64,000 nt of DNA from Octopus sinensis. Taxonomy: Eukaryota. The DNA lies in NCBI RefSeq assembly GCF_006345805.1, contig NC_043007.1:57536001-57600000 (forward strand). The letters run 5' to 3'. Positions 4,305 to 62,778 of the stretch are shown one piece after another. Below the pieces are notes generated by a model that saw only the letters and a list, made by a program, of their open reading frames with translations, was not told where the DNA came from and searched no databases. The translations under genes and the position numbers were made by a program. Each line of letters opens with the position of its first letter. The first letter of the stretch is position 1.

Positions 4305-4494
4305 GTAGGTCCCGGGTTGAGTCGGGGTTAACCACAGTAAATAAGGTACTCAATACATAGCAGAGTAAATTAATTTATTTTATAGAAGGAGCTTCTACAG
4401 GACTAGAACAAATGAAATCATCAGGAAGCTTCCTGATGATTTCATTTGAATGAAACAGTTCTAGTCCTGTAGAAGCTCCTTCTATAAAATAAAT
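4305..4494. mobile_element. Fold-back Penelope-type remnant in (TA)n with hammerhead-like core
   Basis: Palindrome 4373-4494 centred on ggaag|cttcc. The right arm has CTGATGA (4433) ...GAAAC (4452); the left arm lacks 10 nt of it. One-sided extension at 4305-4372; (TA)n on both sides. Confidence 0.7.
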
Positions 4495-4535
4495 AAATAA
4501 ATATATATATATATATATATATATATATATATACA

Positions 4536-5025
4536 AATAGAAATATCATTGTTCCTAAATCTCTCAACGAGAGACATTCAGTAACAGTACCTTAAAGTAA
4601 AAATAATGTGGCAGTTCCGGTTGAGATGAATATTACTGTTGTTTAGCTTCAGGAAACATCGTCTCCAGCTGGCTGTACAACACACTATCTGTGTTCTTAT
4701 ATTTTCCAACAGGGAGTTTAGCACCACCACCCAGCACAAAGCAATATCTGTGGACCACAGTTTCTGGGTTATTTCACTTCTTCAGTACAGAATAGCTGCT
4801 TGACTGAGACGGCGCTGCTAAATCCTCGTTCGAAAATATATATGTAATTTTCAAACTGATACACATTCAATGATCTAATAAATAGAAGCATTACTGTTCC
4901 TAAATCTCTCAACGAGAGATGTTCAGTAACAGTACCTTAAAGTTAAGATGGCGATAATGTTTCCATTTATTAGATCAGTAACGGTATGCCACTTTGAACA
5001 TTATATATATTTTCGAACGACGGTT
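4536..5025. mobile_element. Rearranged Penelope-type remnant with direct and inverted repeats
   Basis: ~63-bp direct repeat tgttcctaaatctctcaacgagaga...accttaaagt at ~4536 and ~4880. Inverted pairs ~4698-4730/4810-4842 and ~4871-4893/4953-4979. Minus-strand CTGAAGAAG...GAAACTGTGGTC at ~4750-4786. Confidence 0.5.
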
Positions 5026-5057
5026 ATATACATATATATATATATGCATGTATATAT

Positions 5058-5175
5058 GACGGACTTTTCAGTTTCGTCTACCACGTCCACTCACACGGCT
5101 TTGGTCGACCCGAGATTATAATAGAGGGTACATGCCCTTGGGAAGCAAGTTTCTAACCACAGGGCCATGCCTGCG
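5058..5175 (-). mobile_element. SINE family B, 5' part (internally deleted)
   Basis: gacggacttttcagtttcgtctacc...gctttggtcgacccgag...gggaagcaagtttctaaccac is the reverse complement of the family B head. Confidence 0.7.
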
Positions 5176-57993: not shown

Positions 57994-58163
57994 CAAGGCC
58001 GTTTTAGTAGCATTACTTGATCCCTGGTACATCAGTGCACTGGGCCTCAAAGCAATGGCTTATTTACAGCAAGCCACATCATACATAGATTAGAATTGGG
58101 CCCCTGGACCCGTGAGGGCCTCTAGACAAATGCCCAGTGTGCTCATACTTTAAAACGGTACTA
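57994..58163. mobile_element. hAT-type MITE with 8-bp TSD
   Basis: Imperfect TIRs caaggccgtttta and taaaacggtacta. Identical gtaatacc at 57986-57993 and 58164-58171. Subterminal gggcc/tgccc motifs. Confidence 0.8.
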
Positions 58164-59960
58164 GTAATACCAGTTACAGCACGTCTACAAAAGTAAACAA
58201 TAATCGTTTCGAGAATGTCTTTGTTCATTTGTCTGTTCGATCAAGAAGGGTGATTTTCGATTAAATAACAATCATTATCACCACCATATGTTCAAAACTG
58301 TAGGGCTTTTCAATTGGATAGCTCCATGTTAGAAAAGAAAGATATACTTTCATTTGCACTCGAAGGTACATACACAAACGCAGTAGAAGATACATTTAAT
58401 ATGCTGCCCAAAGCGTGCGAACCCTGAAGCAGGTGATTGCAAAACGAACTTCTTAACCACGCAGCCATACCTGTGTCCGTGTACGTGGCAACAGACATAA
58501 ACGGACAAGATTCTCTAGTCTAAAAGCGTGAAAATAAACACGTTTATATAAATAGTTGTATGCAAGCGTGTGTTTCTATGCGTCTATCAGTGTACAGGCA
58601 AATGTCAAATTGCTATTTAATTGAGCATTTCATTAAATATAGGAACCGGCTCTTCGTTCTCTCATATTACACACATTTAAGACACACACATATTATATAT
58701 ATATATATATATATATATATAATATATATATATATATATATATATTATATATATATATATGTGTGTGTGTGTGTGTGTGTGTGTGTGTGTGTGTGTGTGT
58801 GTGTATGTATGTATATATATACTTATGTATGTATGTATGTATGTATGTACGTTTGTATGTATGTATGTTTGTATGTACGAGTGTGTGTGCGCGTAGTGTG
58901 ACAGCGTGCGATGTAATATACACGCACACACGCATATATATATGAGTGTATATATATATATATATATATATATATTATATATATATATACTCATATATAT
59001 GCATATATACATATATATATATGTATACATACAGTTACATACACATAAATTATATATTTATATGTATATATATACGTGTGTGTGTGTGTAAATGTATGAA
59101 TGAATATATGTATGTATGTATGTATGTATGTATGTATGTATGTTGTATGTATGTATGTATGTATAAATGTATGCATATATGTATGTATATATAAAGGCAT
59201 GCTGCTAGTATTCTTACACACAGACATATATGTCGGCGAGTAAATGACTGAGAACGAAAGGGAGTGGCCGCGTGAATAAGTGATTTTGTGTGTGTGTGCG
59301 TGCGAGCGTGTGTGTGTGTGTGTGTGTGTGGTGTGTGTGTGTGTGTGTGTGTGTGTGTGTGTGTGTGGATTAGGGTTACGAACGTGATGCCATTTCATAT
59401 TGGAGAGCAATATAGAATATCCGACTGCATCTGTAGTAGACTTGATGTCTGTTACTTCGCTAATTGAGAGATGTGCGTCAATCACATTACTACTGCTCAA
59501 ATGACCACTTAACCATTTGACCATTTCCACATTTCATCACTTTACATTACTGATGCCGTTGCTATCGAACCGTGAACTTTGAAATGGCTACAATGGCCGT
59601 CGCAAGTAATCAGTGTCGGGATTTACCCCCCTTTCTCTTCTGCATTACTGGACAACGCAATAATGAGGGAGCCAGTACGTAGTCACCCGACCTTTTAAAA
59701 ATAGCAGGACATTTCCCTCAATTCACTCGCAATAGTGCTAGAATAGAAGATATTGGAAAATGAAGTCAAACGATCACTGGACATATATAATTAGTACGGA
59801 ATGGTTACAGCCAGAACGCTTTTGATTCTAGACAATTCCGTTCGATCACAGCTAACCTGAGGTAAGTAACAGCGATAGAAACAATTGTCGGAGGGGGACT
59901 GAACGAGTTCATGTGTGTGTTTGAGAGAGAGAGAAGGGAGGTGAGATGAAAGAAGTGAGA

Positions 59961-60025
59961 TAAAGAAAGAAAGAAAGAAAGAAAGAAAGAAAGAAAGAAA
60001 GAAAGAAAGAAAGAAAGAAAGAAAG
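59961..60025. repeat. (AAAG)n microsatellite
   Basis: Directly visible. Confidence 0.95.
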
Positions 60026-62204
60026 ATGATATTTGAATGGCAAGGAAGGCTATGAGACGATCAGCTGAAAATCACCGCTATTTTTCCTGTTTGTCTCATC
60101 GCTCCGTTGATGTCAAAACATCTCACCCACAACCATTCAGTTCACTAAGTCGTTCCCCATTGGGATTTTTTACTGCACAGGAAAGAAAACTTTGGATTGC
60201 ATTGGTATATCGTAACCACAATCGCCGTCTTATACTATACAGAATTCACGTCTTATTGTACTCGTTCGGAAGCATCAGGAAACTCTGCATAATTGCTTGA
60301 GCTGCTTGTTAGAGATAGCAGCTAAAAGTTCTTGATGTCATACCATTCCGTCTTAAGAATAAGAACATTGAATAACGTGATCCGGGAAAAATTAGACTAG
60401 ATGGCTATAGCTGGAACACCTTTGATCATAGATCAGAAATTATCTATGATTCATTAGCTGCAGTAAGAGCTAGGCGGTTGAGTCAGTATCAGTTAGCAGG
60501 GAAGTGGCTGGTTCTAATACTAACACTGATGTTGATTTGTATACTTACTCATGTCACTTTTTGGCTTTTAACGACCTGCTGCAACTTGCTGTAAATACTA
60601 GAGAATCGTGTATTTCATAACTAATGAATGTGTCATTTCCTGAATGAACTGAGATCAACTCTTTTTGTCGAGATTTATTTTGGATAAGAATTTTTTCCGT
60701 CTCGGATTTTTCTTTATATTCTATGCTTCTGCTATTGTTATTTGACTCGTGATCAGCATTGGTTGATCAGGCCTACAATAAAAATGGTTCAAGCTATGGC
60801 CTTTTTGTTTCTTTCTTCACGTATTGTATAAATAATACTATATTATTCAAGAGAATCTTATATAGTCTCAAGACTGTGAGGTTTGATTTAAAGAAGTAAC
60901 CATGTGGAGGCAACAGAGTTTTGTTTATATATATTCTACGCCATGTTTCTGTCGGTGACCAACACAAGTAACTTTTAATGGCTTGTTAATGAGACAAAAT
61001 CAATGTTCATATCTACTTTTTGCAAGTGTTGTTGAAACAAGTGATGGAAAATAAATTTATACGGAGATAGATATCAAGATTGTTGATTTAATTTAATCAG
61101 GAGTTTATCTTACACTGTGGTGTCCGTGGTGAAAGTTTAATGGCGATTTATTTCATAAAAAACAAAAAAGGCTCGGGTTTGAGGATAGAAGACGTTAAAT
61201 TGAAATTCTGGGTTGCAAACGAATGTGTGTGTGTGCGTAATTACGTGTGCGCGTGAGTGTATGCGTGTGCGCGCGCGTGCGTGTGTGTATGTATGTGTGT
61301 GTGTGTGTGTACAATGGAGAAGAGAATAGAAATGCTCATGCAGAAGTCAAAACCAAATGGCCGACTTTGCTCAATAATGTCAATATTTATTCCGCAGGTC
61401 AACCCAAGTTTCGATACAAGTAGTAAGACTGAGTCAATCAACTACAGCATTTCTCCTAATGGAATTATGGCTCTGTATCACCAAATTAAGAAAACACTAA
61501 TTATTCTTTAATTAAAACTGAGAAGTGGAGATTTGGCTTAATTGTCATCTCCTATTTACATTATTCCTGATTCCAAATACTGCTGGAGTGAACTCTGCTT
61601 TTCGTATCGAAGTGGTTAATAAAATATATATCGGTAATGCACTGCGCCAATTTATATATTTATCTGTAGTAGAGCAAGAAATAGGCTCCTCTCGAGTGAA
61701 GACAATGCCTCAGTTTCAAATCGATTTTGGTGCTAGTTCTTTTCAGTTGCACTTGCGTACGTCGTAACATCCAAACATAATACATCCCTTTACGTTCTGA
61801 GTTCAAATCCTGCCGAGGAAAACTTTACTTATCACCTGTGGAGAGCGATAAAATAAAATAACAGCCGTGCACTGGTTTCGATTGAATCCACCGCCTTCAT
61901 TGTATATAATGTTACTCGTAGAACCGAAGAGGTAAGAACAACTCTTACATTCTCTAAGTACAGTTTTGTCTACCAGGAGTTGATCCTTGGTACCTCGGCA
62001 CTTACGCTTGCAACCCTTCTGCTCAAGTGGCAGGACTCTATTTTTTTCAGATGTCCGTACTTTGTATTATTATTATTATTATTATTATTATTATTGTTGT
62101 TGTTGTTGTTGTGTTGTTGTTGTTGTTGTTGTTGTTATTATTATTATTATTATTATTATTATTATTATTATTATTATTATTATTATTATTATTATAGTGT
62201 CCTT

Positions 62205-62778
62205 TACTCTCAGTTGACTAAATGCTTCGGAAACACAGATTAGCTCTGGTCTTATTAAGCTGTAAGATTCGAAGCAGATATTAAGATCTTTGTAAAACTA
62301 AGACCGATTAAATCGATTATTTCTCTAGAAAGTAAAAAGATTGTAATAGTTGTATTCAAACCAAATGTAGAGTATAGTTGTTTTTTTCATTTTGGAGTCA
62401 ACAATTAAATCCTATTTGTCTAAGGAGTGTTTTGTTTTCTTTGTCTAAGCTCTTTCGGCACACATCCTGTGACCTCTTTAACAACACTTTATAAAGTGTC
62501 GCTGAAGAGGTCGCAAGATGTACGTCGAAAGAGCTTAGACAAAGAAAACAAAACACTCCTTAGACAAATAGGATTTAATTGTTGACTCCAAAATGAAAAA
62601 AACAACTATACTCTACATTTGGTTTGAATACAACTATTACAATCTTTTTACTTTCTAGAGAAATAATCGATTTAATCGGTCTTAGTTTTACAAAGATCTT
62701 AATATCTGCTTCGAATCTTACAGCTTAATAAGACCAGAGCTAATCTGTGTTTCCGAAGCATTTAGTCAACTGAGAGTA
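62205..62778. mobile_element. 574-bp spacerless palindrome, Penelope-type, with hammerhead-like motif near the centre
   Basis: Centre at 62491|62492 (acacttta|taaagtgt). The outer ~253 bp of each arm is perfectly complementary. CTGAAGAG (62502)...CGAAAGAGCTTA (62526-62537). Confidence 0.85.

Follow-up and report, generated by a model that had tools for sequence, protein, structure and literature searches.

The window analysed here, 64,000 nucleotides of the Octopus sinensis genome (RefSeq assembly GCF_006345805.1, contig NC_043007.1, positions 57,536,001 to 57,600,000 of the forward strand), contains five palindromes and an 8-kb element with an inverted second copy (Table 1). We identified all five palindromes, which a sequence-only reading of the same DNA had proposed, by self-BLAST and a seed scan of the window. 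Six inverted-repeat diagonals with at least 15 seeds were present (best 239), whereas none appeared in any of 20 local dinucleotide shuffles (best 6). Our analysis makes it likely that the palindromes are 5′-truncated, head-to-head 3′ ends of several families of Penelope-like elements (PLEs), each likely formed anew at insertion, that a junction hot spot in family 1 likely reflects run-off at an RNA start, and that palindrome 5 is an older fold-back that was later lengthened.

Palindromes 1–4 are 5′-truncated head-to-head insertions in (TA)n with a one-sided tail and belong to four multicopy families. Each is flanked by (TA)n to the left and right and extended on one side only (by 68, 48, 84 and 36 nt, respectively); palindrome 5 has (TAA)n at its left border only. 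The sequence-only reading had described four palindromes in these terms, and the flanks and the one-sidedness hold for palindromes 1–4, but the extensions, which it took to be unique, are family sequence. The hammerhead ribozyme pieces it had seen in four palindromes were recovered: a complete type I motif adjoins the axis in palindromes 1 and 5, and only the 3′ half (GAAA, palindromic stem III and cut triplet) is present in palindromes 3 and 4. Palindrome 2 has no hammerhead; its parent has a variant motif with a predicted cut 3–6 nt upstream of the axis of similar copies. The core and stems of a type I hammerhead, with predicted cleavage, can be read in all six families (1–5, numbered after the palindromes, and that of the 8-kb element). 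No hammerhead entry occurred among the 150 of 304 Rfam matches listed, which were of a microsatellite-driven microRNA type and below the gathering score.

First-look searches with whole palindromes as queries returned at least 845, 1,393, 2,658, 1,519 and 225 candidates for families 1–5, respectively, and a query with the pseudo-long terminal repeat (pLTR) of the 8-kb element returned at least 2,222 for its family, all these counts being lower bounds. Their sum, at least about 8,900 in a genome of 2.72 Gb, corresponds to roughly one per 300 kb, so that these families alone do not reproduce the density of about one per 10 kb suggested from the window.

Table 1. Features of the palindromes and the 8-kb element (positions in the window; hammerhead cuts are predicted).
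Feature	Position	Strand	Description
Family 1 tail	4305–4372	−	in full-length copies continues into 5′ untranslated region (UTR) and start of open reading frame (ORF)
Family 1 tailed arm	4373–4428	−	10-nt hammerhead deletion found in this copy alone
Palindrome 1 fold axis	4428/4429		(TA)n flanks 4279–4304 and 4501–4532
Family 1 tail-less arm	4429–4500	+	complete type I hammerhead; core starts 4433, predicted cut after 4471
Family 2 tail	17440–17487	−	PLE assigned to Neptune type
Family 2 head-to-head 3′ ends	17488–17679	.	axis in AT-rich palindrome just 3′ of parent's predicted cut; hammerhead absent from this copy
Family 3 tail-less arm	19528–19750	−	begins within stem II of the hammerhead; GAAA about 19712, predicted cut after 19701
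Family 3 tailed arm	19753–19931	+	tail 19848–19931; starts about 80 nt 3′ of cut
Family 4 tail	20586–20621	−	similar to family 2 tail
Family 4 head-to-head 3′ ends	20622–20755	.	axis in stem II of U3-A8 hammerhead variant
8-kb element, main copy	38913–44710	−	just over one unit: partial pLTR that begins within stem II of the hammerhead, tail, ORF, 3′ UTR, hammerhead, tail-less end at (TA)n
8-kb main-copy hammerhead	core 39215, predicted cut 39113	−	motif reading
8-kb main-copy ORF	44008–42503 and 42533–41313	−	reverse transcriptase (RT) and GIY-YIG, frameshifted
8-kb element, inverted 5′-truncated copy	44719–47104	+	hammerhead core 46636, predicted cut after 46739; 162-nt tail 46943–47104
Whole palindrome 5	62199–62784	.	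outer 250-nt arms mutually identical; no other match among 40 scored
Family 5 inner fold-back	62430–62553	.	two diverged 62-nt hammerhead arms; core 62502 on +

Parent elements of the families

The 8-kb element has the layout outlined for PLEs in PMC8557442, PMC3846280 and PMC2377424. Its protein gave no significant match in Pfam, which does not recognise Penelope/Poseidon-type proteins here, and a feature search indicates eukaryotic RT clusters. Intact 960-codon frames with RT and GIY-YIG endonuclease motifs, read by eye, are present at two loci of the family (L376 and L385). For the clade assignments we relied on the linker before GIY-YIG, in which a CX2-5CxxC motif, again read by eye, is absent from the Penelope/Poseidon type and present in the Neptune type. 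The linkers of the 8-kb family and family 1 match by eye what we take to be the Penelope/Poseidon pattern. The hammerhead of the 8-kb family is of type I with a 90-nt stem II, and the inversion junction at 44710 lies at the apex of this long stem, with the predicted cut (44662) 48 nt further downstream. The earlier placement of this inversion within the hammerhead hairpin is correct; the junction is one of many scattered positions in the family. A long asparagine-rich stretch lies between RT and endonuclease (41700–42600 in the window, and in L376 and L385), comparable to the asparagine-rich inserts described for Adineta Penelope (PMC3846280).

At 4 of 30 RT-bearing loci of family 1 we found the parental order TATA, hammerhead, tail and ORF start, and the RT and GIY-YIG pieces gave 39% and 37% matches to the 8-kb protein. 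By these motifs the family 1 parent is classed as a protein-coding PLE of Penelope/Poseidon type. The family 2 parent is a 4,612-nt unit with RVT_1 (Pfam, E 1.3e-7), a CX4CX2C linker and GIY-YIG, and the linker, identified by eye, places it in the Neptune type; its hammerhead variant has an extra A after GAAA. One family 2 copy (L375/L257, C2, about 25.07 Mb) is exactly one unit long, from just after one tail end to the next. Family 3 derives from a 534-nt tandem unit that carries a full hammerhead and has no Met-initiated ORF longer than 67 aa. One locus holds 1.3 of these units (L088) and three others span the unit boundary (L078, L082 and L087); with its ORF-less tandem unit and one hammerhead per unit, family 3 appears retrozyme-like. 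Family 4, whose tail and U3-A8 hammerhead variant resemble those of family 2, is unplaced: at least 1 kb of additional upstream sequence contained no parent ORF. The sampled loci of families 3, 4 and 5 contained no linked RT, and the tblastn matches in five flanks had no demonstrated joining to these families.

The hallmarks of endonuclease-positive (EN+) PLEs are thus present, namely a single ORF with RT and C-terminal GIY-YIG (the 8-kb family and families 1 and 2), a pLTR formed by partial tandem duplication, an inverted 5′-truncated copy and a one-sided tail. The last two features are reported for EN+ PLEs in sections of PMC8557442 and in accounts of Penelope from Adineta vaga (PMC3846280) and Drosophila virilis (PMC2377424). 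The overall architecture is already published and the families described here are further families of a known kind.

The tail is confined to exactly one arm in 32 of 35 family 1 pairs, and (TA)4 or more follows the tail end at 28/30, 27/30 and 25/30 loci of family 2, family 4 and the 8-kb family, respectively. Two family 1 subfamilies are separated by one base, and both arms agree at this base in all 47 fold-backs (25 T/T and 22 A/A); the upstream sequences are non-palindromic and differ between the subfamilies. Stubs of different PLE families adjoin or nest in the same TA runs at six loci (L003, L011, L047, L208, L369 and L359).

It is very improbable that the hairpins are elements of the miniature inverted-repeat transposable element (MITE) kind, or master copies, amplified as fixed units. 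The 29 best other matches of palindrome 1 do share nearly one structure; that sample was selected by the query, however, and arm lengths and junctions vary in every family. A fixed master hairpin for family 1 was rejected on the same grounds, as its junction sequences are variable and, among 1,969 hammerhead cores found by exact pattern, 528 have the base of a perfect axis and 1,441 another. Fixed terminal inverted repeats, a fixed length and the lack of an RT parent, by which MITEs are recognised, do not describe these hairpins, which have asymmetric ends, variable lengths and PLE parents; any target-site duplication would be masked by the (TA)n flanks. Arms that mapped to MITEs with fixed terminal repeats and target-site duplications were the outcome that the sequence-only reading had named as contradicting it, and they map instead to PLE 3′ ends. 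A MITE or master-copy origin is contradicted for families 1–4, with secondary duplication of single copies possible.

Junctions and the hammerhead

The family 1 junctions were sampled on C1, where every exact match to the core as far as 122.5 Mb was taken (104 arms at 68 loci). Upstream of the hammerhead core, 68 of the 104 arms end at 0–15 nt, none at 16–73 nt and 36 at 74 nt or more, and ends in this hot spot occur at 43 of the 68 loci. Paired arms agree in 34 of 35 cases (24 short/short, 10 long/long and 1 mixed, where 15.8 mixed pairs would be expected if arms were independent). The dominant junction is AG|CT, located 5–7 nt before the core and about 45 nt upstream of the predicted cut. 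The arms retain the whole hammerhead motif, which indicates an uncut template, and stem III is missing before the 3′ end in only 1 of 133 3′ ends at the sampled loci. Of the 36 long arms, 34 have a TATAAA beginning 35 nt upstream of the core and 29 nt upstream of the A of AGCTTCC. A G absent from the parent stands ahead of AGCTTC in 6 of 9 irregular junctions, and 4 further arms with a one-base-short axis also read GAGCTTC.

Because of the 29-nt TATA spacing and the extra G, as would be left by a copied cap, we read the hot spot as an RNA start, and it probably marks the RNA 5′ end rather than the position of the cut. As the specific origin of this spot we slightly favour copying that runs off a capped RNA start, after which the two cDNA ends would pair via AGCT or AAGCTT. 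Whether the family 1 fold-backs as a whole are a genomic record of a PLE replication intermediate is evenly balanced: these would be hundreds of insertions in which both cut ends were primed on transcripts sharing a single fixed and capped 5′ terminus, the uncut hammerhead was copied through, and the copies were joined via a 4–6-nt palindrome.

Several points weigh against the start-site interpretation. The entire 50 nt upstream of the spot are conserved, which makes the TATA conservation weak evidence, and symmetric joining itself would partly yield the agreement between arms. Because the sample requires an intact core, it would overlook insertions in which both arms begin at the cut; just three unselected family 1 copies were examined, and 0/3 were at the cut. 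None of 9 RT-bearing family 1 copies with a sense pLTR uses the spot exactly as its start (3 lie within −20 to +7), and the arms partnering RT-bearing copies, 8 in all, do not stop there. Against the wider PLE reading stands the failure to find a parent ORF for family 5, as for family 4. The internal promoter of Drosophila Penelope is described as TATA-less in PMC2377424, and the Drosophila Penelope intron, according to a passage of PMC4209133, ends at the 5′ end of helix I. This last point, together with the pyrimidine tract and YAG|CTTCC found in all family 1 parent subfamilies, also suits a 3′ splice site, with spliced or lariat-derived RNA setting the end of the template. We consider this unlikely: there is no constant upstream exon at the junctions among the matches listed, and the fixed 29-nt TATA spacing and extra G suit a start site. 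A structural stop at the spot is a further rival. We also considered snap-back on stem I or joining at the cut site in family 1 and rejected it, as the predicted junction, with the 3′ stem I strand running directly into the core, was not among the 200 of 1,969 matches listed. A literature search for PLE inversion junctions mapped to a start site found none, although such work may exist.

The sequence-only reading had proposed that the ribozyme is where reverse transcription halts or changes template, and had suggested testing whether inversion breakpoints cluster there. For the other families we sampled 30 loci each with tail-only queries (family 2, family 4 and the 8-kb family) and compared, by Fisher test, the arms at risk that end in the hammerhead with those ending in four neighbouring bins of equal size. 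One duplicate was removed from family 2 (29/30 retained); the 8-kb list comprised 51 arms at 30 loci, with two elements matched twice and five approximate positions, all more than 800 nt from the end. Whole-palindrome queries favour query-like copies and were excluded from these statistics, and families 3 and 5 are represented by such biased samples only. The proportion ending in the hammerhead was 10/38 against 20/124 for the 8-kb family (147-nt hammerhead, p 0.16), 4/27 against 9/111 for family 2 (p 0.28) and 6/29 against 18/99 for family 4 (p 0.79). The proposal finds a partial counterpart in family 1, where ends cluster beside the motif but on the upstream side of the core, away from the cut, and there is no enrichment in these three families; the ribozyme as a general determinant of inversion is not supported.

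A stop or template switch at the ribozyme cut or folded structure in all families is improbable. In its favour, the family 1 hot spot abuts stem I, and a few tailed arms of family 2 (3/29, at 3–6 nt) and family 4 (4/30, at 1–9 nt, one exactly at the cut) start a short way 3′ of the predicted cut. These small groups are indistinguishable from short-biased truncation in these samples, however, and family 4 has a peak of equal size about 300 nt upstream. Family 1 arms traverse the whole uncut motif, and cleavage mutants still insert in the in vitro experiments reported in PMC11167929. In families other than family 1 the hammerhead lies near the axis because it is 50–300 nt from the 3′ end and truncation is ordinarily short-biased. 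A further group of 5′ ends in family 4 lies far from the hammerhead, at about 400 nt from the end of the tail (L266, L269, L271, L276 and L294; 5 of 10 arms at risk), possibly the RNA start of that family.

Proposed insertion from both cut ends and comparison with known systems

Single-arm tails, arms with the same base and variable junctions fit priming from both cut ends at two internal RNA sites. The element enzyme would cut a TA microsatellite, and each of the two DNA ends would prime a copy of the RNA, with two fixed internal sites as the points of initiation. Only the arm initiated at the more distant site would carry the tail, and the two cDNAs would then be joined at their 3′ ends, often via a short palindrome. 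In family 1, copying would begin near the RNA 5′ end, cross the uncut hammerhead and stop after 65–135 nt, where it would run off the capped 5′ terminus of a transcript initiated in the pLTR; in the other families the junctions would arise from ordinary short-biased truncation. For an Anolis PLE, two internal RT starts, extension of both strands and dispensable hammerhead cleavage have been reported in vitro (PMC11167929). The earlier suggestion of several PLE families with an inverted second copy made at insertion agrees with our results: the arms are PLE 3′ ends tailed on one side, and families 1 and 2 lead back to coding parents.

The families resemble the EN+ PLEs described in the literature in their head-to-head inverted repeats, junction palindromes, single-end tail, microsatellite targets and pLTR hammerhead, and resemble those of Adineta in the putative TATA and initiator of the pLTR. 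They differ in their tails, which measure 36–162 nt here as compared with the 30–40 nt given in the accounts cited above, and in the one sharp, dominant junction of family 1. A passage of the Adineta paper (PMC3846280) attributes junction palindromes to self-priming on antisense RNA, whereas our data fit two end-joined cDNAs. The Anolis Poseidon element PAc is similar in having a tail defined by two internal RT start sites, both strands cut and extended, and uncut RNA as the main template; the sections of that report considered here leave genomic inversion junctions unmapped, and start-site run-off is our proposal (PMC11167929). As in the minimal PLE hammerheads of PMC4209133, the motifs are of type I with a palindromic helix III and a U3-A8 core variant, and occur in that account as opposite-strand pairs 100–700 bp apart ascribed to truncated PLEs. 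The extra A after GAAA in family 2 and the 90-nt stem II of the 8-kb family, both in predicted motifs, are unlike those described there.

Family 3, with its ORF-less 534-nt unit, single type I hammerhead and more-than-unit tandems, is comparable to the animal non-LTR (long terminal repeat) retrozymes presented in PMC7229834 and bioRxiv 10.64898/2026.07.22.740005. Unlike these, it forms mostly short fold-backs and not long arrays, its unit exceeds the 220–350 nt given in the passages cited, and it is known here from DNA alone. The motifs of four families were absent from one supplementary file of PMC8557442, and supplementary material other than this file may hold matching consensus sequences.

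In the papers cited here the formation of PLE inverted repeats and the role of the hammerhead are open questions, and the mechanism is the useful part of our finding. Family 1 argues against the ribozyme cut setting the inversion there and yields a prediction that is sharp and can be counted, namely that RNA starts with a cap 5–7 nt before the hammerhead core. If this is correct, PLE promoters could be located by their fold axes in DNA sequence alone, and short PLE stubs would result from run-off after internal priming close to the 5′ end of the mRNA.

Palindrome 5 and other features of the window

The sequence-only reading had taken palindrome 5 for a PLE fold-back, but its long arms are not PLE sequence and the family match is limited to the inner 62-nt arms. 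These differ at 8 of the first 34 positions, the following 250 nt are identical, and at the left boundary family sequence appears again. Contigs of X19 and X20 show the right arm continuous with the right flank. One X18 contig crosses the axis, reaching 30 nt past the outermost arm differences on both sides, and another carries the left junction. The left long arm is probably a later local inverted duplication of the single-copy right flank: 250 nt of this flank would have been copied, inverted, into the left arm of an old hammerhead fold-back via a local template switch. Such a history points to old stubs as possible starting points for larger inverted duplications nearby.

The 100% identity of the single-copy outer arms, with only the right arm and right flank seen in X19 and X20, would also be expected if the hairpins, above all palindrome 5, were assembly artefacts. 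We regard this as very unlikely, since X18 contigs span the axis and the left junction and palindromes 1–4 have counterparts at many loci, with tails and diverged arms. Since X18 may itself be the source sample, its contigs support a real allele of palindrome 5 in one individual or species only. In the family 5 copies listed, the ends lie no more than about 70 nt upstream of the core. A second family 5-like hammerhead (26025–26094, minus strand) lies beside a long (TAA)n run, apparently with no inverted partner.

Three weaker inverted repeats are located at 4826–5020, 7005–7154 and 8959–9007, the second of which has TA-like flanks and decayed hammerhead-like pieces and is perhaps an old fold-back. 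The segment 4880–4949 duplicates 4535–4604 as a direct repeat. Rearranged pieces of an element of the long interspersed nuclear element type, with RVT_1 and zf-RVT matches, occur twice, at 22471–25957 and 31804–34234. At locus L381 (6627–9113), an open frame of 829 codons with cysteine-rich repeats lies beside a PLE copy.

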